64,000 bases of DNA from assembly GCA_045650025.1 (NCBI GenBank), contig JAZRQR010000020.1, forward strand, positions 11,077-75,076, given 5' to 3'. Below, in pieces: positions 4,856-45,796 of this stretch (position 1 is the stretch's first letter; the number at the start of each line of letters is the position of its first letter). The DNA is from Eubacteriales bacterium. Its GTDB lineage: Bacteria; Bacillota; Clostridia; Oscillospirales; CAG-272. Made by a program: the position numbers and the translations under genes. The notes under the pieces were generated by a model. It saw only the letters and a list, made by a program, of their open reading frames with translations. It was not told the DNA's origin and did no database searches.

Positions 4856-5998
4856 TTATTTGAACAACTCCGCCGTGGTCTTCATTTTCTCAATGACCGG
4901 CACGTCAAACGGGCAGCGGGATTCGCACGCGCCGCACCCAAGGCAATCATCCGCGTGGGCATCGAGATGGACGTAATGCTCCTTGACCGATGCGGGCACG
5001 TCCTCCTGCATGGTCGCCAGGTCGTAGAGCTTGTTGACCATGGCAATATCAATGTTAACAGGGCAGGGCTTGCAATGTCCGCAATAGGTGCACTGTCCGC
5101 TGTAGGCGTGTCTGGGCGCGTTTGCAAGCACGGTGGCGTAGTCCTTCTGATCCTCGGTCGCGCTCTCGTAAGCCAGCGATGCGGGGATCTGCGAAACGTT
5201 GTCAAAGCCGATCAGCACGCTGGAAACCGCAGGGCGGGTCAGGGCATAGTGCAGGCATTGCACAGGGGTCAGCGCCACGCCAAAGGGCGAACGCTTGGCA
5301 TCCAGCAGTCTGCCGCCGCCAAGCCCCTTCATGACCGTGATCGCCACGCCCTTTTGCTCGCAAAGCTTGTAAAGATCGGCTCTTTCCTTGTCAATGCCTG
5401 CAAATTTTGCGTCGTATTCCTCCACAAAGAAATCGTCAATGTTTTCGGTAGGGGGCAGCAGGTCGTATGCGGGGTTGAGCGAGAACAGGATCACCTCAAC
5501 TGCACCGTGCTCCACAGCCAGGCGCGCAATGGTGGTGTTATGCGTGGAAAGACCGATGTGGTGGATGGCACCCGATGCCTTCAGCTCGATCATGTAATCC
5601 ATAAATCCGCATTCCAGCACGGTCCTCCAATCCTCCAGTTTGTCCACGAAATGGATCATGCCAAGGTCGATGTAATCGGTCTGAAAACGTGCCAGCAGAT
5701 CGGCAAACGCCGCCTTGACCTCGTCCATGTCGCGCGTGCGTACGTACTGTCCGTCACGCCAGGCAGAGCCCACGTGCCCCTGTACGATCCACTTTTCGCG
5801 ATTGTCCTTGATGGCGCTACCGATATTGGTGCGCACGTTGGGCTCGGACATAAAGCAGTCCACAATGTTGATGCCCTGCGCAAAGCATTCGTCCATGACC
5901 GCCTTGACCTCCTCGGCATTGTGCCGCTCCAGCCACTCGCCGCCTACGCCGATCTCGCTGACCATCAGTCCCGTATTTCCCAAAACTCTGTATTGCAT
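4856..5998 (-). CDS. Aldo/keto reductase with C-terminal 4Fe-4S ferredoxin-like domain
   Basis: MQYRVLGNTGLMVSEIG N-terminus; CTYCGHCKPCP and CLGCGACESRCP cluster motifs; exact promoter at 6030-6058 lies inside the longer ORF-track version. Confidence 0.85.
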   Translation of the reverse strand: MQYRVLGNTGLMVSEIGVGGEWLERHNAEEVKAVMDECFAQGINIVDCFMSEPNVRTNIGSAIKDNREKWIVQGHVGSAWRDGQYVRTRDMDEVKAAFADLLARFQTDYIDLGMIHFVDKLEDWRTVLECGFMDYMIELKASGAIHHIGLSTHNTTIARLAVEHGAVEVILFSLNPAYDLLPPTENIDDFFVEEYDAKFAGIDKERADLYKLCEQKGVAITVMKGLGGGRLLDAKRSPFGVALTPVQCLHYALTRPAVSSVLIGFDNVSQIPASLAYESATEDQKDYATVLANAPRHAYSGQCTYCGHCKPCPVNIDIAMVNKLYDLATMQEDVPASVKEHYVHLDAHADDCLGCGACESRCPFDVPVIEKMKTTAELFK

Positions 5999-6029
5999 GA
6001 TAGTACCGTCCTTTGCTTGTATTGATACG

Positions 6030-6058
6030 ATTATACCACATATGAGAAAAACTGTCAA
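6030..6058 (-). promoter_or_regulatory. Exact consensus promoter TTGACA-N17-TATAAT (minus strand)
   Basis: Plus-strand ATTATA 6030-6035 and TGTCAA 6053-6058, 17-nt spacer with TGG extended -10. Confidence 0.8.
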
Positions 6059-6064
6059 TATTGC

Positions 6065-6094
6065 TTGACGGATCCGCTACTTTTGTGTTATACT
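6065..6094 (+). promoter_or_regulatory. Promoter TTGACG-N18-TATACT
   Basis: Hexamers 6065-6070 and 6089-6094, TGT extended -10; divergent from 6030-6058. Confidence 0.6.
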
Positions 6095-6122
6095 GTAAAA
6101 AACGAGAAAGGAAGATTTCACA

Positions 6123-6605
6123 ATGTTTCGTCCCATGGTTCGACAGAGCAAGCAGCTATCAAAAGAGGATTGCATTTCCGTTTTGCGCGAGCAAAAGAGA
6201 GGCGTGCTGAGCGTCAACGGTGACGACGGCTACCCCTATGCCGCGCCCATCAACTACTATTACAATCCGGAGGACGGCTGCCTGTATTTCCATACCGGCA
6301 AAAGAACCGAGAGCCACCGCACCGAATCGCTTGCCAAGTCGGATAAGGTATGCTTTTGCGTGACCGAGCAGGGAACTCCCATCCCCGGCGATTGGGCGTT
6401 GCTTGTGCGCAGCGTGGTGGTGTTCGGACGCGTGGAAATGGTGCACGACGTTGAGCGCGTGGTGCATATCTGCACGGCAATGAGCCGACAATTCACGAGT
6501 GACCAAGCGTTTATTCAACGTGAGATCGACCGCTTTGCCAAGGGCACGCTTTTGCTGAAGCTGACGCCCGAGCACATGTGCGGCAAGCGTCTGGAAGAAA
6601 AATAG
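6123..6605 (+). CDS. Pyridoxamine 5'-phosphate oxidase family (FMN-binding split barrel) protein
   Basis: 160 aa; RGVLSVNGDDGYPYAAPINY pattern typical of PNPOx/Nim-like proteins. Confidence 0.7.
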   Translation: MFRPMVRQSKQLSKEDCISVLREQKRGVLSVNGDDGYPYAAPINYYYNPEDGCLYFHTGKRTESHRTESLAKSDKVCFCVTEQGTPIPGDWALLVRSVVVFGRVEMVHDVERVVHICTAMSRQFTSDQAFIQREIDRFAKGTLLLKLTPEHMCGKRLEEK

Positions 6606-6628
6606 CCGCGAAGTTTTACTTTACTCGC

Positions 6629-6717
6629 TTGTTCAGTATGCATTCGCGCCTAAACCACACCTAAAAATGGGTCCCAACCCATTTTTGGAGCAGTGCTCCA
6701 CGGTGAGGTTTCAAAAG
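6629..6717 (+). promoter_or_regulatory. Repeated structured leader element, copy 2 (upstream of bcp)
   Basis: P1 6652-6661/6702-6711, P2 6663-6671/6678-6686, P3 6687-6691/6695-6699; SD 6721-6727. Confidence 0.5.
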
Positions 6718-6730
6718 TTAGGAGGTTATT

Positions 6731-7183
6731 ATGCTGACAGTAGGACAAAAAGCCCCGGATTTTACACTTTTCGATAAGGACGGAAACGCCGTCTCACTCT
6801 CCGACTTCCTTGGCAAAAGGGTAGTCGTATATTTCTATCCCAAGGACAACACCCCGGGATGCACGCGCCAGGCATGTGCCTTTGCGGGTGCGTATGCGCA
6901 GTTTCGGGAAAAGGACGTGGTAGTCATCGGCATCAGCCGCGACAGCGTCGCCTCGCACGTCAAGTTTGCACAGAAATACGACCTGCCGTTTATCCTGCTT
7001 TCCGACCCCGATCGCGTTGCCATTGACGCGTTTGGCGTATGGAGCGAGAAAAAGCTGTACGGTAAGCTCAGCTTTGGCGTTAACCGTACCACCTTTCTGA
7101 TCGACGAGCAGGGCATTATCACCCACGTTATGCCCAAGGTCAAGCCGGACACCAATGCCGCCGAGATTCTGGCGCTGCTTTAA
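6731..7183 (+). CDS. bcp: Thioredoxin-dependent thiol peroxidase (peroxiredoxin Bcp)
   Basis: 150 aa; PKDNTPGCTRQAC peroxidatic Cys motif. Confidence 0.9.
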   Translation: MLTVGQKAPDFTLFDKDGNAVSLSDFLGKRVVVYFYPKDNTPGCTRQACAFAGAYAQFREKDVVVIGISRDSVASHVKFAQKYDLPFILLSDPDRVAIDAFGVWSEKKLYGKLSFGVNRTTFLIDEQGIITHVMPKVKPDTNAAEILALL

Positions 7184-7352
7184 ACAGACAAAACACCTGC
7201 CTGCGCGGGTGTTTTTTCTTGCGGCAAAACCTCTGAAAAAAACTCTAAAAACCCTGCATCGTTCACAGATAGTTCACACTATTCTGCAAATTTTGTGGTA
7301 TAATGTACTATCACTAATTATGTCAACCTATAAAATCATTTGGGAGGGTATT

Positions 7353-8825
7353 ATGGCTGAATTAAAAATGCTTGCCATCGACCTTGGCGCGTCCAGCGGC
7401 AGAGGTATCGTTGGCTCCTTCGACGGCGAAAAGCTGACTTTGCGCGAGAATCACAGATTCTCCAACGACCCCATGTACGTCAACGGAAGATTTACCTGGG
7501 ATATCCTGCGCATCTACTTTGAGATCAAGAACTCGATCACCAAGACCATCATTGACGGCGACGACATCGCCAGCATGGGTATCGACACCTGGGGTGTTGA
7601 CTACGGTATGATCGACAAGAACGGCAGACTGATGGCAAACCCCATCCACTACCGTGATGCAAGAACCGAAAACGTGACCGATTACGTTAAGAACTTCGTA
7701 TCCCCCGAAGAGATCTACAACGTAACCGGTATTCAGGCAATCGACTTCAATACCCTCAACCAGCTGGCTGTAGAGAAGAGAGACAACGGCGAGGCATTTG
7801 ACAGAGCTGACAAGCTGCTGTTCATCCCCGACCTGCTCAACTACTTCCTGACCGGTAAGATGGCTACCGAGTATACCATTGCTTCCACCGGTATGATCCT
7901 GGATGCAAACTCCAGAAAGATCGCAACCGAGCTGCTCTCCAAGCTGGGCATTCCGGATAGCAAGTTTGCTCCCATGGTAGAGCCCGGCACTTGCCTTGGC
8001 GGTCTGCTGCCTTCCATTACCGATGAGGTTGGTAAGAACCGCATTCAGGTTTACACCACCGCGTCTCACGATACCGCATCTGCGGTTATCGCAGTTCCTG
8101 CTACCAAGAAGGACTTCATTTACATTTCCTCCGGTACCTGGTCGCTCATGGGCGCTGAGCTGGATGCTCCGCTGATCACCGATGCAACCAGAGAAGCGAA
8201 CTTCACCAACGAGGGCGGCGCAGAGGGCACCATCCGCTTCCTTAAGAACATCATGGGTCTTTGGATCATTCAGGAATCCAGAAGACAGTGGAAGAGAGAA
8301 GGCAAGGATTACTCGTTTGCTCAGATGGAAGCTTGGGCAAAGGAGTGCACGCCGTTCCGTTCGCTGATCAACGTGGACTACAAGACCTTCAACACTCCCG
8401 GCAACATGCCCGAGAAGATCCGCGACTACTGCCGTATGACCGGTCAGCCCGTACCCGAAACCGTGGGCGAGGTCGTTCGTTGCATTTACGAGTCTCTGGC
8501 TCTCAAGTATCGCTACACCGTAGACACCATTGGCAGACTGCAGGGTAAGCCCGCAACCATGATCAACGTCGTGGGCGGCGGCACCAAGGATAAGTTCCTG
8601 TCTCAGATGACCGCGGACGCTTGCGGTATTCCCGTATGCGCAGGTCCTGAGGAGGCAACCGCTATCGGTAACCTGGTATCCCAGGCAATTGCACAGGGCG
8701 AGATCAAGGATTTGGCTGAGGCAAGAGTCGTAGTGGCTAACTCCTTTGAGATGAAGCACTACGAGCCCTGCGCACAGCGCGAGGCATGGGATGAAGCGTA
8801 CGCACGCTTCTGCAAGCTGCAGTAA
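7353..8825 (+). CDS. rhaB: FGGY-family carbohydrate kinase, rhamnulokinase-like
   Basis: AIDLGASSGRGIV...HRFSN...WD N-terminus typical of RhaB; GGGAGGG SD before ATG 7353. Confidence 0.7.
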   Translation: MAELKMLAIDLGASSGRGIVGSFDGEKLTLRENHRFSNDPMYVNGRFTWDILRIYFEIKNSITKTIIDGDDIASMGIDTWGVDYGMIDKNGRLMANPIHYRDARTENVTDYVKNFVSPEEIYNVTGIQAIDFNTLNQLAVEKRDNGEAFDRADKLLFIPDLLNYFLTGKMATEYTIASTGMILDANSRKIATELLSKLGIPDSKFAPMVEPGTCLGGLLPSITDEVGKNRIQVYTTASHDTASAVIAVPATKKDFIYISSGTWSLMGAELDAPLITDATREANFTNEGGAEGTIRFLKNIMGLWIIQESRRQWKREGKDYSFAQMEAWAKECTPFRSLINVDYKTFNTPGNMPEKIRDYCRMTGQPVPETVGEVVRCIYESLALKYRYTVDTIGRLQGKPATMINVVGGGTKDKFLSQMTADACGIPVCAGPEEATAIGNLVSQAIAQGEIKDLAEARVVVANSFEMKHYEPCAQREAWDEAYARFCKLQ

Positions 8826-42954: not shown

Positions 42955-43545
42955 ATGCATTTACAGATTCATGATGCTTTGATCCCCGGAACAAAGCTGC
43001 GCAGATCCGATATGAACAACGTAACGGGTCTTGAATTTCTTTCCAAAATCTTCTTTATTTCCGACGGCGTTATGCTGACACAGATTCGTGACATCTCCGG
43101 CATTGACGGCTCGACTCTGCAAAACTGGACCAAGAGAGGCTGGGTGCCGCTTTCCAAGTCCAAGAAATACGATATTGACCAGGTTGCGTACATTTTGATT
43201 ATCAATATGCTGCGCCCCTGCATGCAGCTGGACAAGATTGCGTACATGCTGGAATACATCAACGGTGACCTGGAGGATGAGAGCGACGACATCATCCGCG
43301 CCAGCGTGCTTTACGATTATATTTGCCGCATTCTGGACGCGCTGGTGGAGGAGAATCAGTGCTCGTTTTCTTCGATCCGTGCGGTTATTGAAAAGCAGAC
43401 CACCAGCTATACCGAGGTAATGGACGGCGCAAGAGAACGCCTGACGGATGCGCTGGAGGCGATTGTGGTGGCGTACTATGCAACCCTGATCAAGCAGCGC
43501 TCGGATGAGCTTGTCAACAAGCTTGTGGGCAACCGCTATGAGTAA
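42955..43545 (+). CDS. DUF1836 domain protein (putative HTH)
   Basis: LQNWTKRGWVPLSKSKKYDIDQVAYILIINMLR matches the DUF1836 pattern; SD AGAGGAGGA. Confidence 0.55.
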   Translation: MHLQIHDALIPGTKLRRSDMNNVTGLEFLSKIFFISDGVMLTQIRDISGIDGSTLQNWTKRGWVPLSKSKKYDIDQVAYILIINMLRPCMQLDKIAYMLEYINGDLEDESDDIIRASVLYDYICRILDALVEENQCSFSSIRAVIEKQTTSYTEVMDGARERLTDALEAIVVAYYATLIKQRSDELVNKLVGNRYE

Positions 43546-44131
43546 ACGCAATTCGGAGCGCATTGTCCTTGCTGTCATTTATCTGCTGCTGATCTCGTTT
43601 GCGGCAACTGCATCGTATATGATTGCGGATCAGATCATGCGCATGCTCAACACCATCATGGTGCTGGAGGAAACGCACGTGGCAAGCGTGCTGCGCCTGT
43701 TTCTGACCGTGCTGCTCAGCTGCACGATTCTGGCTGCCGTCACGTATTGGGAGGGCTATCATTTTGCAACCTTTGAAAAGGGCATCGTCTTTCCTGCCAT
43801 CGGCATGGCGCTGGGCGTGCATTTTGCGCTGGGATTCTTGTTCGGCTTTTCTCCCTGGGTCACGGGTGGCGTCATGTATCTGACGGGCTGGATGAATTAC
43901 GGAGCGGATTACACCTCGGAGTGCTCCATGGCAACCAAGGATATCAGCGTGCTGCTTTTTGTCGCAGCGTTCGTCATCTTCTCGGGCATCTATATGCTGT
44001 TTATGACATTTCCGCAGTATTACGGAATGGTCAAGCGATTTGCGGACAGAGAAGAGCTGCTGGAGCAGGCACAGCGCAAAACAACTTATGTGCAACCGCA
44101 AGAGGAATATGCGGATTCTGACGAGAATTGA
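43538..44131 (+). CDS. Hypothetical membrane protein
   Basis: About 5 TM; ATG 43538 overlaps upstream stop (ATGAGTAA). Confidence 0.45.
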   Translation: MSKRNSERIVLAVIYLLLISFAATASYMIADQIMRMLNTIMVLEETHVASVLRLFLTVLLSCTILAAVTYWEGYHFATFEKGIVFPAIGMALGVHFALGFLFGFSPWVTGGVMYLTGWMNYGADYTSECSMATKDISVLLFVAAFVIFSGIYMLFMTFPQYYGMVKRFADREELLEQAQRKTTYVQPQEEYADSDEN

Positions 44132-44225: not shown

Positions 44226-44253
44226 TTGACAAATTCGAAAAAAGGTGTATAAT
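44226..44253 (+). promoter_or_regulatory. Strong promoter TTGACA-N16-TATAAT with UP element (tRNA operon)
   Basis: Hexamers 44226-44231 and 44248-44253, GTG extended -10, A/T tract 44185-44222. Confidence 0.8.
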
Positions 44254-44290: not shown

Positions 44291-44375
44291 GCGAGAGTGG
44301 CGGAACTGGCAGACGCGCACGTTTGAGGGGCGTGTGGTTCACACCGTACGGGTTCAAGTCCCGTTTCTCGCACCA
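44291..44375 (+). tRNA. tRNA-Leu(GAG)
   Basis: Hand-folded cloverleaf: acceptor GCGAGAG/TTCTCGC, anticodon loop TTGAGGG, long variable arm, T-arm ACGGG-TTCAAGT-CCCGT, encoded CCA. Confidence 0.9.
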
Positions 44376-44408
44376 AAGGGTACGAGGTGTGAGCCTTGTA
44401 CCGAATAT

Positions 44409-44495
44409 GCGGGTATGGCGGAATTGGCAGACGCGCTAGATTCAGGTTCTAGTGGGGGCAACTTCGTGGAGGTTCAAGTCCTCTTACCCGCACCA
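44409..44495 (+). tRNA. tRNA-Leu(CAG)
   Basis: Acceptor GCGGGTA/TACCCGC, anticodon stem CTAGA/TCTAG, loop TTCAGGT, long variable arm, T-arm GGAGG-TTCAAGT-CCTCT, encoded CCA. Confidence 0.9.
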
Positions 44496-44497
44496 AA

Positions 44498-44529
44498 GCA
44501 AAGGGTGATCTTCGGATCACCCTTTTTGC
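44498..44529 (+). terminator. Rho-independent terminator T1
   Basis: GCAAAGGGTGATC-TTCG-GATCACCCTTTTTGC. Confidence 0.85.
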
Positions 44530-44531
44530 TT

Positions 44532-44675
44532 TGGTACAGGTAAGAGACCACGCAGAAGCTCCTGCGAGTACGGTGCATACTGAACACATCTATACAAGTG
44601 GTCTCCGTACTCGACGCAATAGGGAGCGCAAAGCGCGAGTCTTTGCCAGGTTCTAAGTCCTCTTACCCGCACCAA
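44532..44675 (+). other. Structured module B ending in a tRNA-Leu 3'-end copy (candidate ncRNA or att-site scar)
   Basis: 5' TGGTACAGGTAAGAGA is an inverted (14/17) copy of the tRNA 3' end; 3' end AAGTCCTCTTACCCGCACCA identical to 44476-44495. Confidence 0.4.
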
Positions 44676-44681
44676 AAAGAG

Positions 44682-44711
44682 CAGGTAGGCATTTAGCCTA
44701 CTTGTTTTTTT
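44682..44711 (+). terminator. Rho-independent terminator T2
   Basis: CAGGTAGGC-ATTTA-GCCTACTTG followed by TTTTTTT. Confidence 0.8.
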
Positions 44712-44868
44712 GTCGCGGGTATACAATGAGGACTTGAACGGGCGCGGTAGTGAATGACTGCCTAAATGGCAGTCAGAGCCGCGCCTGACCGAGGCACGTA
44801 GCAAAAGACCGCATCAATTCGCGGCTTTTGCGTCGTCGTGCCGAGAATCAAGTCTCTTACCCGCACCA
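44711..44868 (+). other. Structured module C: Y-shaped tRNA-like element with acceptor stem and ACCA (candidate ncRNA)
   Basis: GCGGGTA (44715-21) / TACCCGC (44858-64) + A + CCA; GAGGACTTGAAC (44728-39) is the exact reverse complement of tRNA T-arm 44472-83. Confidence 0.4.
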
Positions 44869-44870
44869 AA

Positions 44871-44902
44871 GCAAAGGGTGATCTTCGGATCACCCTTTTT
44901 GC
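44871..44902 (+). terminator. Rho-independent terminator T1' (duplicate of T1)
   Basis: Identical to 44498-44529. Confidence 0.85.
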
Positions 44903-45028
44903 TTTGGTACGCACCCACGTTTGCCCGATCCTTTATAAATCTTAATATCTTAAATATCGACACAATTTGTACCAAACGCAAAAAAATCTGTTATAATAGT
45001 GGCAACGATAGATTTTGAGAGGAAGCTT

Positions 45029-45796
45029 ATGTTAAAGTATTTAGGATTTACCGATACTCTGCCTGAAGCGCAGGGCGCATATTCCTGGCAGCATTTGACG
45101 TTTGTGACGTCGCTGGTGCTGGTGATGACGGCACTTGCCATTCTGATTGGATTGCATTACCGTAAGCATCCTGAAAAGAATAAAAACGTACCGCTGATCT
45201 GGGCGGCGCTGCTGATCGACGGCTTTGAGATCTGCAAGATCGTGCTCAATTGCATCCACGCAGACAACCCGGTCGATAGCCTTTTGATCAATCTGCCGCT
45301 GTTTCTGTGCAGCATCCAGCTGATCACCCTGCCGCTTGCCGCGTTCTCCAAGGGTATACTGAAGGAGGCAGCTCTTGACTTCGTTATGATCTTTGGCTTG
45401 CTGGGCGCTCTGGCGGGCACCTATGGCGCAGCACAAAACTACGCGGTGTATCACGTATTCTACTACGTTAACGTGGTCTCGGGCATTACGCATTGCATTT
45501 CCGGCTTCGGCGCGCTCTACATTGCCATTTCGGGTATCGCAAGCATGAAAAAGAGAAATATAGGCATCACCTTTGGCATTCTCTGCTTCTTCTGTGCTGC
45601 CGCATATACCGTCAACCGCCTGATCGATTACAATTACATGTTCCTGATGCGCGGTGACGGCACGCCCTACGACATTCTGTATAATCTGGTCGGCGGACAC
45701 GCCTGGCTGTACCCCATGGGCGTCATCGCATTGTTCCTGCTTTACATATCCGGCTTCTACGGTGTGTATTTCCTGATCAGCAAAAAGAAAAACTGA
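45029..45796 (+). CDS. Hypothetical polytopic membrane protein (YwaF/TIGR02206-like?)
   Basis: About 7 TM; ATG 45029 after GAGAGGAAG; ORF-track GTG 44999 lies in a -10-like TGTTATAAT. Confidence 0.4.
   Translation: MLKYLGFTDTLPEAQGAYSWQHLTFVTSLVLVMTALAILIGLHYRKHPEKNKNVPLIWAALLIDGFEICKIVLNCIHADNPVDSLLINLPLFLCSIQLITLPLAAFSKGILKEAALDFVMIFGLLGALAGTYGAAQNYAVYHVFYYVNVVSGITHCISGFGALYIAISGIASMKKRNIGITFGILCFFCAAAYTVNRLIDYNYMFLMRGDGTPYDILYNLVGGHAWLYPMGVIALFLLYISGFYGVYFLISKKKN

Follow-up and report, generated by a model that had tools for sequence, protein, structure and literature searches.

Module C, a segment of about 154 nt behind the tRNA-Leu genes of the 64-kb window (the whole stretch of DNA that was analysed), lies on the + strand, that of the tRNAs, at 44715-44868 and is one copy of a conserved C-type 'tRNA-trailer module', in which two arms and their junctions form the 'cargo'. 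Its closing helix is built from a direct copy of the 3' end of the neighbouring tRNA and a 5' strand tailored to this copy. Module C has an exceptionally stable fold, its helices covary and its sequence is constrained between species; the ends of the modules match the adjacent tRNA, the modules lie on the same strand as the tRNA, and one location is inside a tRNA operon. From these observations we infer that Module C may be transcribed, processed and functional as a released RNA. Our leading interpretation, to which we give a probability of roughly 45%, is that it is a passenger RNA of tRNA operons, the tRNA-like end of which recruits tRNA end-processing.

The tRNA-Leu operon has a sigma-70 promoter (44226..44253, + strand; TTGACA-16-TATAAT, 12 of 12 consensus matches), and the promoter scan showed no other promoter-like site upstream of Module C. 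The promoter is followed by tRNA-Leu(GAG) (44291..44375, + strand; ARAGORN, and Rfam RF00005 with 44.6 bits) and tRNA-Leu(CAG) (44409..44495, + strand; ARAGORN, Rfam and repeat comparison). The 3' part of tRNA-Leu(CAG), here called X, comprises the T-loop, the 3' strand of the acceptor, A73 and CCA, and the ends of Modules B and C derive from it. Terminator T1 (44496..44537, + strand; terminator scan) is the centre of a long palindrome, X-T1-X' (44481-44502 / 44525-44546, 22 nt, 91% complementary), composed of the tRNA end, T1 and the start of Module B. The latter (44538..44674, + strand) is a second trailer module with an interior unlike that of Module C. Its 5' GGTAAGAG is complementary to CTCTTACC, its 3' terminus (GGTTCTAAGTCCTCTTACCCGCACCA) is a copy of the tRNA 3' end, and its fold is weakly better than that of shuffled sequences (z = -2.1); homologues were found in L014, L002, L091, L092 and L095 (loci other than the window carry L numbers). 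Terminator T2 (44675..44714, + strand; bidirectional in form and reported by the scan on the - strand) has the X of Module B on one side and the X' of Module C on the other. Terminator T1' (44869..44910, + strand), which follows Module C, is identical to T1. The tRNA-Leu(CAG) end plus T1 (44481-44537) recurs at 44854-44910 as a perfect direct repeat of 57 nt, the second copy being the last 15 nt of Module C and T1'; this repeat is absent from an earlier reading of the locus made from the letters alone (the sequence-only reading). The 22-nt tRNA end is present in four copies within 44356-44870, and Module C occurs once in the window. Homologues of the window neighbours are DUF1836, a membrane protein without a Pfam family and TMEM164; exact-protein look-up of two flanking window proteins gave no record.

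The minimum free energy (MFE) fold of Module C as RNA is Y-shaped and has 52 pairs, which agrees with the roughly 50 base pairs in 154 nt counted in the sequence-only reading. The energy was -81.9 kcal/mol, compared with a shuffled mean of -48.0 (a strong z of -8.64; 0 of 200 shuffles were as good). The reverse strand gave -70.6 (z = -5.25), and the same fold was obtained with DNA parameters (z = -6.8). The closing helix consists of 7 bp in the acceptor register, a 5'-strand bulge and then about 11 bp. In the acceptor-like part, GCGGGTA (44715..44721, + strand) pairs with TACCCGC (44858-64), which is followed by A (44865) and CCA (44866-68); the sequence-only reading had equated these strings with those of tRNA-Leu(CAG), 44409-44495, and they are indeed identical. 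The acceptor-like stem and the ACCA of Module C duplicate the 3' end of the neighbouring tRNA. The 6-nt bulge (TACAAT, 44722..44727, + strand) is located where the 5' strand of a tRNA leaves the acceptor stem, and it is present in every C-type copy with varying sequence. The 'anti-T' box GAGGACTTGAAC (44728..44739, + strand) is the perfect complement of the T-arm segment GTTCAAGTCCTC of tRNA-Leu(CAG) (3' strand of the T-stem plus T-loop) and pairs with 44848-44857; the stem extension proposed earlier, GAGGACTTGA with TCAAGTCTC, was located at 44728-37 and 44848-56. The 3' strand of both closing helices is the copy of the tRNA 3' end (44848..44868, + strand; TCAAGTC-TCTTACCCGC, A and CCA), from which one base of the tRNA is deleted.

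Arm 1 (44739..44787, + strand) has an outer helix (44739-48 / 44778-87) and an inner hairpin (44755-62 / 44768-75), with a conserved asymmetric internal loop, AGUGAAU / GA; the strings GGCGCGG (44741-47) and CCGCGCC (44779-85) enclose GACTGCC-TAAAT-GGCAGTC, exactly as first described. The junction UGACCGA and arm 2 occupy 44788..44847 (+ strand), with an outer helix (44793-98 / 44837-42), an inner helix (44801-12 / 44821-31) that is invariant across copies, and the apical loop AUCAAUUC. The sequence-only reading had recognized this arm correctly but had given its outer helix as 9-10 bp, with 3' coordinates that were off by one base; the helix has 6 bp, GGCACG (44793-98) with CGTGCC (44837-42), and the 'CCGAG' strings on either side of it are direct repeats and non-complementary.

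The C-type homologues come from gut MAGs of related Oscillospiraceae/Eubacteriales. In six full copies 97.4% of the cells assigned to helices were paired, and 11 pairs showed double-sided changes, in five of the six helices; none of 500 shuffles reached any of these measures, and alignments that were slid out of position gave 36-43% paired cells and 0-2 double-change pairs. Helices 3 and 4 of arm 1 have five pairs with double changes, and the outer helix of arm 2 shows compensatory changes among L014, L091 and the window, so that both arms proposed from the sequence are kept through compensatory change. Between the window and L091 the identity is about 95% for Module C, compared with 75% for the flanking coding sequence, 82.5% for Module B and 89% for the promoter region. 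The seven substitutions in Module C are all compensatory or in the apical loop; two compensated pairs are in the outer helix of arm 2 (GGCACG/CGTGCC to GGUGCG/CGCACC in L091). Junctions and loops, where the bases are unpaired, do not vary in sequence among species in which the flanking protein is only 66-87% identical, and this invariance of internal loops and junctions suggests a protein or RNA partner. Helix 1 (the acceptor) is the least well kept, with 90.5% paired and three pairs broken without compensation. The ACCA is retained in three of seven homologous copies (window, L008 and L083a) and is replaced by CAGC in L002, AUGA in L009a and CAUU in L014. The alignment contains nine G.U cells and one A.C cell, and the outer helix of arm 1 carries a tandem G.A/A.G mismatch in L002, L008 and L014 and Watson-Crick pairs in the window, L009 and L083. 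A trend towards purifying selection on unpaired positions, well beyond that on intergenic DNA nearby, is already visible with these few sequences.

A covariance-model search of the window and 91 loci added no C-type copies, distant ones included, to those already known from BLAST and nhmmer, and BLAST of 44536-44912 gave no match among phages (50,697 records) or plasmids (72,556 records). Three C-type patterns were searched in the IMG/VR viral contigs and gave a single chance match, in a capsid gene (TAGCAAAAGACCGCATCAA), with none for the arm 1 pattern; a pattern for the Q-type module (see below) matched host flanks of prophage contigs. Two of the three matches from a metagenome pattern scan were chance matches in coding DNA.

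The ends of the modules follow the tRNA beside which they are found. In L083 the interior of Module C lies behind tRNA-Leu(CAA) (141 of 154 positions align, E = 1.5e-26), and both closing helices are changed on both strands to fit this tRNA (GUCGGU/ACCGGC and GUGGGACUUGA/UCAAGUCCCAC); the 5' bulge is retained despite these changes. For 11 modules the energy of the duplex between 5' and 3' ends averaged -22.3 kcal/mol within the same tRNA type versus -13.2 with other types. A direct copy of the tRNA's own 3' 16-mer was present within 600 nt downstream at 16 of 49 non-redundant tRNA loci, and upstream at none of the 49. Modules of the same design with other interiors occur behind tRNA-Gln, Leu(TAG), Arg and His, and at least six interior types are represented (C, B, Q, Q2, R and Leu-TAG types). 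The Q-type interior appeared near-identical by eye behind tRNA-Gln (L030) and tRNA-Leu(CAA) (L043), and the Q-type closing helix extends into the discriminator and C74, which is outside the tRNA register. Almost without exception the modules come behind the operon's last tRNA, and a further terminator follows them. L085, L087 and L088 have a module that separates tRNA-Arg from tRNA-His; no terminator occurs there, so that this module must be co-transcribed. In this tRNA-Arg module the 5' GCGUCAG pairs in tRNA register with CUGGCGU, after which come G and CCA. Where the tRNA has C4-G69, the L087 module has U4.G69 and the L085 module U4-A69; the former is a G.U intermediate on the tRNA strand, involving the module's own downstream 3' end. 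Module stems are almost purely Watson-Crick (1-3 G.U per about 50 pairs), and the fold energy was better on the tRNA strand in 11 of 21 modules, that is, without consistent bias. At tRNA-His loci there is a palindrome of about 40 nt per arm, CCA included. The membership of Module C in this family was overlooked in the sequence-only reading; the family, found behind many tRNA genes of gut Clostridia, is apparently undescribed so far, and the literature yielded no description of tRNA-trailer modules of this kind.

Module C was compared with known RNA and DNA elements. It shares with a tRNA the 7-bp acceptor stem, discriminator and 3' CCA, identical to those of tRNA-Leu(CAG), but as a tRNA or pseudo-tRNA it was rejected: ARAGORN reported only the two tRNA-Leu genes and Rfam gave no tRNA match at 44715-44868, even at E up to 10, in agreement with the earlier view that the fold is not a cloverleaf. 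The same view held that it is too small for a tmRNA; neither ARAGORN nor Rfam found one, and the length is only 154 nt. None of the 4227 Rfam 15 families, ribozymes and sRNAs included, matched Module C at the gathering threshold, and the window, L030, L043, L083 and L087 gave tRNAs only; matches to MicX and plant miRNAs were terminator or long-hairpin artefacts. A hammerhead has a core CUGANGA - stem II - GAAA plus a cleavage triplet. The arrangement CUGACCGAG - arm 2 - CGAGA(A/C) is longer by one base and carries G where A14 is invariant, with no Rfam match, and was rejected; as a look-alike, CUGACCGAG...CGAGAC misses two invariant positions. A kink-turn, which has a 3-nt bulge and then tandem sheared G.A/A.G pairs in register with the helices on either side, is still a candidate for arm 1: the internal loop (AAU-GA-A / GA) has the right letters, shifted by one nucleotide relative to the predicted inner helix. 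A separate promoter was discarded, the TACAAT of the bulge having no -35 partner and not being conserved among homologues, as was a small ORF that meets an immediate stop (ATG AGG ACT TGA). With feet of GCGGGTA and TACCCGC and neither RYYYAAC nor GTTRRRY cores, Module C is not an integron attC site; the nearest attC-core string, CTTGAAC, has G where Y is needed. As in an att duplication, the direct repeat of the tRNA 3' end begins in a tRNA stem-loop, but 316 nt of non-coding structured DNA without an integrase lie between the 57-nt repeats. The T-loop att model of a tyrosine integrase was also rejected, since what precedes the T-loop copy on its 5' side (GAGAA, GCAAA) does not resemble the T-stem as an inverted core site would. 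As in MITEs and REPINs, terminal inverted repeats form a hairpin, the 5' strand being an inverted, bulged copy of the 3' end; the terminal repeat of Module C is tRNA-specific and has no fixed family sequence.

As a passenger RNA, Module C would be made together with the tRNAs, in the window by transcription that starts at the tRNA-Leu promoter and reads through T1 and T2, and elsewhere as an internal unit of a tRNA operon. Its tRNA-like end would then be a substrate for tRNA end-processing, with RNase P cutting 5' of G44715 and 3' trimming or CCA repair setting the end at 44868. This would free a stable RNA of about 154 nt, the arms of which would carry the function. Among RNAs other than tRNAs, tmRNA, 4.5S RNA and the P1/P7 C4 RNA are matured by tRNA enzymes. 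The t-elements of plant mitochondria likewise have an acceptor-like stem, are not tRNAs and are matured by these enzymes (PMC1920247). Several observations argue against the passenger RNA. T1 and T2, both consensus terminators, stand between the sole detectable promoter and Module C, which has no promoter of its own, and in the predicted read-through RNA its 5' strand pairs with the tRNA-end copy of Module B across T2, not with its own 3' end. The loss of ACCA, the weak acceptor helix, the register of the Q-type helix, the pure Watson-Crick stems, the lack of strand bias, the patchy distribution and an interior without known RNA motif also speak against it. A wider proposal is put forward only tentatively, as it is rather doubtful: tRNA-trailer modules may be exchangeable structured-RNA cassettes of the tRNA genes of gut Oscillospirales, closed by a tRNA mimic, matured by the tRNA machinery and spreading between tRNA loci by re-tailoring of both strands, and such cassettes would be 'passengers' or parasites of tRNA operons.

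The main rival of the RNA interpretation, in our estimate somewhat unlikely, is that Module C is a non-autonomous, cassette-like mobile or recombining DNA element that accretes at tRNA 3' ends, its fold being required when the DNA is single-stranded, or by a recombinase or transposase whose gene lies elsewhere, and the RNA being incidental; REPINs or MITEs, integron attC and the folded attP of CTX phage are possible analogies. Presence, absence and order of the modules differ among close relatives: B-T2-C in the window and L091; C, B and partial C in L002; tandem C-C in L009 and L083; B, about 400 nt and B' in L095; and a truncated B or nothing, with no Module C, in L103-L106. In L089, where the P0002 homologue (a flanking protein) has 90% identity and is among the most similar retrieved, arm 1 is deleted and arm 2 mismatched. 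One interior is found behind different tRNAs (Q-type, L030 and L043), assemblies often break at the Module C locus, and the 316-nt segment 44538-44853 between the perfect 57-nt repeats resembles a Campbell-type or unequal-crossover product. X and inverted X' flank each terminator, giving long palindromes, and the nearly pure Watson-Crick stems, the lack of strand bias and the fold obtained with DNA parameters fit this explanation as well. Traces of mobile DNA are found at several loci: in L014 Module B is immediately preceded by ...|GCACCA plus terminator, at which a large serine recombinase gene ends, in L087 a prophage lysis cassette abuts the tRNA-His module, and in L025 the CCA of a Q module is directly followed by an element of 2.2 kb whose terminal inverted repeats are perfect over 22 bp. 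In the window, on the other hand, no recombinase or transposase adjoins Module C, and classical target-site duplications, integron cores and the T-stem-like inverted core site that a T-loop-targeting tyrosine integrase would require next to the T-loop copies are all absent. The phage and plasmid collections held no copies, and the viral contigs gave only the chance capsid-gene match for the C-type patterns. A three-way junction with invariant unpaired bases and about 95% identity, against 75% for coding sequence, exceeds what known DNA repeats need, and the 5'-strand bulge outlasts re-tailoring to another tRNA in L083.

Replication itself could also produce such structures. Module C would then be a functionless by-product of template switching at terminator hairpins near highly transcribed tRNA genes, together with scars of integrative elements, with the tRNA end copied direct and inverted and the 'compensatory' changes and perfect hairpins being mechanical. 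Template switching can make and maintain perfect hairpins and mimic compensatory evolution (PMC8794818), and high transcription of DNA stimulates quasipalindrome mutations (PMC3820800). X' adjoins the descending arm of the terminator without a gap, the tRNA-His palindrome extends about 40 nt per arm through the CCA, G.U pairs are very few and decayed copies are common. We nevertheless consider a by-product improbable: the compensating strands of the arm outer helices and of the closing helix are 40-110 nt apart, too far for simple local template switches, and copying would erase the conserved bulge and the tandem G.A motif. The recurrence of one interior at different tRNA loci, the invariant unpaired junctions and loops in species with only 66-87% identity of the flanking protein, and the excess in element identity (about 95% versus 75% for coding sequence and 82.5% for Module B) speak against it as well. 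Still less probable, in our view, is a cis-acting transcription or processing device without a free RNA, in which the module, together with the second terminator, would provide a fail-safe point of termination or cleavage and shield downstream or convergent genes from read-through of the very strong tRNA promoter. The position of most modules, after the last tRNA and before another terminator, would suit such a device, and the trailer as a whole (44496-44912) folds exceptionally well (z = -14.8). What lies downstream varies from locus to locus (a TMEM164-like gene in the window; in L008, L009 and L014 a transporter-like ORF in convergent orientation), and the module therefore goes with the tRNA and not with the next gene. 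A single terminator suffices for many tRNA operons in the same genomes, the module is missing in close relatives, one module is internal to an operon, and an insulator needs neither a specific conserved three-way junction nor tRNA-matched ends.

If the modules are processed RNAs, they would constitute a new abundant non-coding RNA family in dominant, poorly studied gut and rumen bacteria and would be the natural equivalent, in bacteria, of the engineered 'tRNA scaffold'. If they are DNA-level cassettes, they would represent a new kind of tRNA-targeted repeat, which would account for tRNA trailers as hot spots of structural variation and assembly breaks. The closing helix, which tracks the neighbouring tRNA, is a simple testable signature for finding more modules, and it raises the question of the mechanism by which both strands are re-tailored when a module moves. 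In either case annotators should take modules neither for tRNA pseudogenes nor for simple integrase scars.

Among known systems, mascRNA, the tRNA-like domain of tmRNA, 4.5S RNA and the P1/P7 C4 antisense RNA are non-tRNA substrates of RNase P. In common with tRNA-like processing elements (t-elements, PMC1920247), the 5' and 3' ends of Module C form an acceptor-like helix of 7 bp, beyond which the discriminator and CCA are unpaired, the remainder is not a tRNA, and the element is derived from or located beside tRNA genes. It differs from them in lacking mimics of the D-loop and of the T-loop, the bases of the latter being buried in a helix; moreover, its interior is exchangeable cargo, the ends are re-tailored to each neighbouring tRNA, and ACCA is not universal. 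Integrases leave direct repeats of tRNA 3' ends, as in the att sites of prophages and genomic islands and in tandem accretion. The modules share with these a direct repeat from T-loop through CCA, the arrays and the hot spot for mobile DNA (L014, L025 and L087). However, only 100-300 nt separate the repeats, there is no integrase, the modules also contain the tRNA end in an inverted and tailored copy, and the interior is not the remnant of a decaying island but a three-way junction that is conserved and covaries.

Structured extragenic repeats include REP/REPIN and BIME, Correia and other MITEs, and integron attC sites. Like the modules, they are short, protein-less intergenic hairpins near terminators, often behind genes, with arrays, a patchy distribution and stems maintained by compensatory change; the ends of the modules, in contrast, copy the adjacent tRNA and have no fixed terminal repeat, an attC core is absent, and the fold is branched with invariant junctions. 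The attP of CTX phage folds as a single strand into a stem that re-creates the target duplex. By analogy, the modules may be likened to it in having two inverted target copies about 100 nt apart and a stem that re-creates a duplex with an internal bulge, but they are chromosomal and very short and have no phage genome or Xer/dif-type site. In the synthetic 'tRNA scaffold', structured RNAs are expressed between tRNA-derived ends, and the cell processes and stabilises them. A foreign structured RNA between tRNA-derived ends is what the modules have in common with this design; in the scaffold only the anticodon arm is replaced and the D and T arms stay, whereas the modules keep only the acceptor and T-stem strands and are natural.

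Module C (44715-44868) is real: a conserved, structured element that belongs to a family. It folded into a Y of 52 pairs with a minimum free energy of −81.9 kcal/mol, compared with −48.0±3.9 for shuffled sequences (z = −8.64), so that the Y shape described in the sequence-only reading is far better than shuffled controls. The opposite strand folded more poorly (−70.6, z = −5.25), and DNA parameters left the fold unchanged. Every string quoted in that reading was found at its place; arm 2 is present, but only GGCACG (44793-98) and CGTGCC (44837-42) pair, the flanking CCGAG being direct repeats. Overall the description held, and the interpretation was supported in part. The contention that the element is neither a cloverleaf tRNA nor a tmRNA agrees with ARAGORN and Rfam (4227 families, E up to 10), which returned no tRNA, tmRNA or other family at Module C. 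Its 5' box GAGGACTTGAAC perfectly complements the T-arm of the real tRNA, and the closing helix has a tRNA-like geometry: its 3' strand runs through without interruption, and its 5' strand bulges after nucleotide 7, which matches the point where the 5' strand of a tRNA leaves the acceptor stem.

A consensus promoter (44226-44253) drives both tRNA-Leu(GAG) (44291-44375) and tRNA-Leu(CAG) (44409-44495), each identified by ARAGORN and Rfam. Terminator T1 comes next, followed by Module B (44538-44674), terminator T2, Module C and terminator T1', an exact copy of T1. Module B differs from Module C in its interior but is alike in design: its 5' GGTAAGAG complements the tRNA end, and the module finishes in GGTTCTAAGTCCTCTTACCCGCACCA, a copy of the tRNA-Leu(CAG) 3' end. 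Its fold beats shuffles weakly (z = −2.1), and homologues occur in L002, L014, L091, L092 and L095 (two copies), with truncated forms in L103-L105. A direct copy of the 3' part of the tRNA (X) and an inverted, tailored copy (X') flank each terminator, giving long palindromes (44481-44546 and 44655-44739); at the tRNA-His loci of L085 and L087 the palindrome arms are ∼40 nt, CCA included. The predicted fold of the whole trailer pairs X' of Module C with X of Module B across T2 (an X-terminator-X' palindrome) and T1 with T1', and arms 1 and 2 alone of Module C persist. A perfect 57-nt direct repeat (44481-44537 and 44854-44910), comprising the last 15 nt of tRNA-Leu(CAG) or Module C plus terminator, brackets 316 nt that span Module B, T2 and the greater part of Module C, an arrangement suggestive of a recent recombination or duplication event. 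The sequence-only reading noted neither this repeat nor the match of the 5' box to the T-arm.

Conservation was assessed on 80 related loci fetched via the downstream membrane protein (Eubacteriales, Oscillospiraceae and Faecousia MAGs from ruminant guts), to which L083 was added by a metagenome scan and L091 and L089 via homologues of the upstream protein. Module C copies with 83–86% identity were found in L002, L008, L009 (two in tandem) and L014; in the second tandem copy (L009 526-729) arm 1 is enlarged apically by a GC-rich insertion of 48 nt, and the remainder is intact. RNAalifold on six full copies recovered the Y shape, with 97.4% of the cells paired and 11 pairs changed on both sides, in five of the six helices. 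None of 500 shuffles reached any measure, and slid controls gave 36–43% paired cells and 0–2 double-change pairs. No variation is seen in the inner helix of arm 2 or in most of the unpaired junctions (AAUGAAUGAC, CAGAAC, CUGACCGAGG, GUAGC). The sharpest comparison is that with L091, where identity is 75% in flanking coding sequence, 82.5% in Module B, 89% in the promoter region and about 95% in Module C. Of the seven Module C substitutions, four make up two compensatory pairs in the outer helix of arm 2 and three fall in the apical loop of that arm; as between arms decaying freely and compensation, the alternatives posed earlier, compensation is what is seen.

The closing helix is matched to the neighbouring tRNA. 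In L083 a C-type interior, the type of Module C, lies behind tRNA-Leu(CAA); the module ends in the 3' end of that tRNA (UCAAGUCCCACCACCGGCACCA), and both 5' strands are altered to fit it (GUCGGU, GUGGGACUUGA) with the intervening bulge kept. This end-tailored design is general, being shared by modules with other interiors, which lie behind tRNA-Gln(CTG) (L025, L030, L033, L043, L059), tRNA-Leu(CAA) (L043), tRNA-Leu(TAG) (L067, L072), tRNA-Arg(TCT) and tRNA-His (L085, L087, L088) and a partial tRNA at the end of a prophage contig (L086). Each starts with X' and ends with X of its tRNA. Of 49 non-redundant tRNA loci, 16 repeat the 3' 16-mer of their tRNA in direct orientation ≤600 nt downstream, and none does so upstream. 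The duplex energy of module 5' and 3' ends averaged −22.3 kcal/mol for the same tRNA type vs −13.2 kcal/mol for other types. Some interiors share sub-motifs (a UGAAUG-stem-CCGGUGG hairpin, UGACCGAG). A minimal variant behind tRNA-Gln (L059 2060-2117) has just GATCTAAATGCAAC between X' and X, and looks like a deletion between AATGCAA direct repeats flanking the Q-type interior. Between the two Module B copies of L095 (3690-3870), at least three units of GTATGG-NATC plus a short hairpin precede a T-loop-like CACCGGTTCAAATCC; this region may be another module type.

We consider it possible, with a probability of about 0.45, that Module C is a passenger RNA carried by the tRNA operon, its tRNA-like end serving for maturation. 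Every module lies on the strand of its tRNA and downstream of it, and the tRNA-like geometry of the closing helix points the same way. In L085, L087 and L088 the module would be part of a tRNA precursor, because it lies between tRNA-Arg and tRNA-His without a terminator; the 5' GCGUCAG of the module and CUGGCGU form a helix in tRNA register, and G and CCA come next. C4-G69 of tRNA-Arg is U4.G69 in the L087 module and U4-A69 in that of L085, and the former is a wobble intermediate on the tRNA strand, involving the module's own 3' end. The C-type alignment holds 9 G.U cells vs 1 A.C cell. Against an RNA, the trailer fold described above leaves the closing helix unformed, T1 and T2 both lie between the promoter and Module C, an upstream scan found no promoter of its own, ACCA is kept in three of seven copies, conservation is lowest in the acceptor helix, the module stems consist almost entirely of Watson-Crick pairs, and a comparison of both strands in 21 modules gave neither a consistently better fold. 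A cis-acting insulator is a very improbable reading of the same element. That it is a neutral by-product is improbable: hairpins can arise and be 'repaired' by replication template switching in the absence of selection (PMC8794818, PMC3820800), but this process accounts poorly for the invariant unpaired sequences, the long-range compensation, the tandem G.A motif and the bulge that is kept.

Alternatively, Module C would be a DNA-level cassette or repeat, which we regard as somewhat unlikely. The locus is dynamic: modules form tandem arrays (L009, L083, L025), arm 1 is missing from L089 and Module C from L103-L106, and L002 has a different module order. Contigs often break at the tRNA-Leu/Module B/Module C locus, a pattern compatible with repeats or with structural variation among strains; the upstream-gene contigs L091, L092, L093, L096, L097 and L106 end inside or just past it. 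Unrelated mobile DNA is inserted at tRNA-end copies in L014, L025 and L087. In L014 a large serine recombinase gene in two frames (596-2099), ending in CTCACT|GCACCA plus a terminator, lies directly upstream of Module B, and tRNA-Leu genes are absent from the 4 kb upstream. This looks like integration of an element at the tRNA end. L025 carries a 2.2-kb AT-rich insert (5763-7968) between two tandem Q-type modules, directly after the CCA of the first. The insert is bounded by perfect terminal inverted repeats of 22 bp (GGGCTACAAAAAAGATATTTTT) and contains three ORFs, one of which (424 aa) has a C-terminus that by eye looks like a putative endonuclease. In L087 (943-3916, minus strand), holin-like, endolysin-like and collagen-repeat tail-fibre-like genes, prophage-type from their translations only, adjoin a truncated module behind tRNA-His; because of this, the IMG/VR contigs L085-L088 would join prophage ends to a tRNA cluster of the host. 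Phage and plasmid collections gave no match to the region. Homologues of the neighbouring genes (42955-44131, 45029-45796) are DUF1836 (196 aa), TMEM164 (255 aa) and a Pfam-less membrane protein (208 aa); no recombinase or RNA-related protein is among them.

A comparable module family was not found in Rfam or the searchable literature. For a passenger RNA with a tRNA-like end there are known counterparts: tmRNA, 4.5S RNA and C4 RNA are substrates of tRNA-maturation enzymes and have such ends. The t-elements, RNAs with acceptor-like ends, are likewise substrates of these enzymes (PMC1920247).
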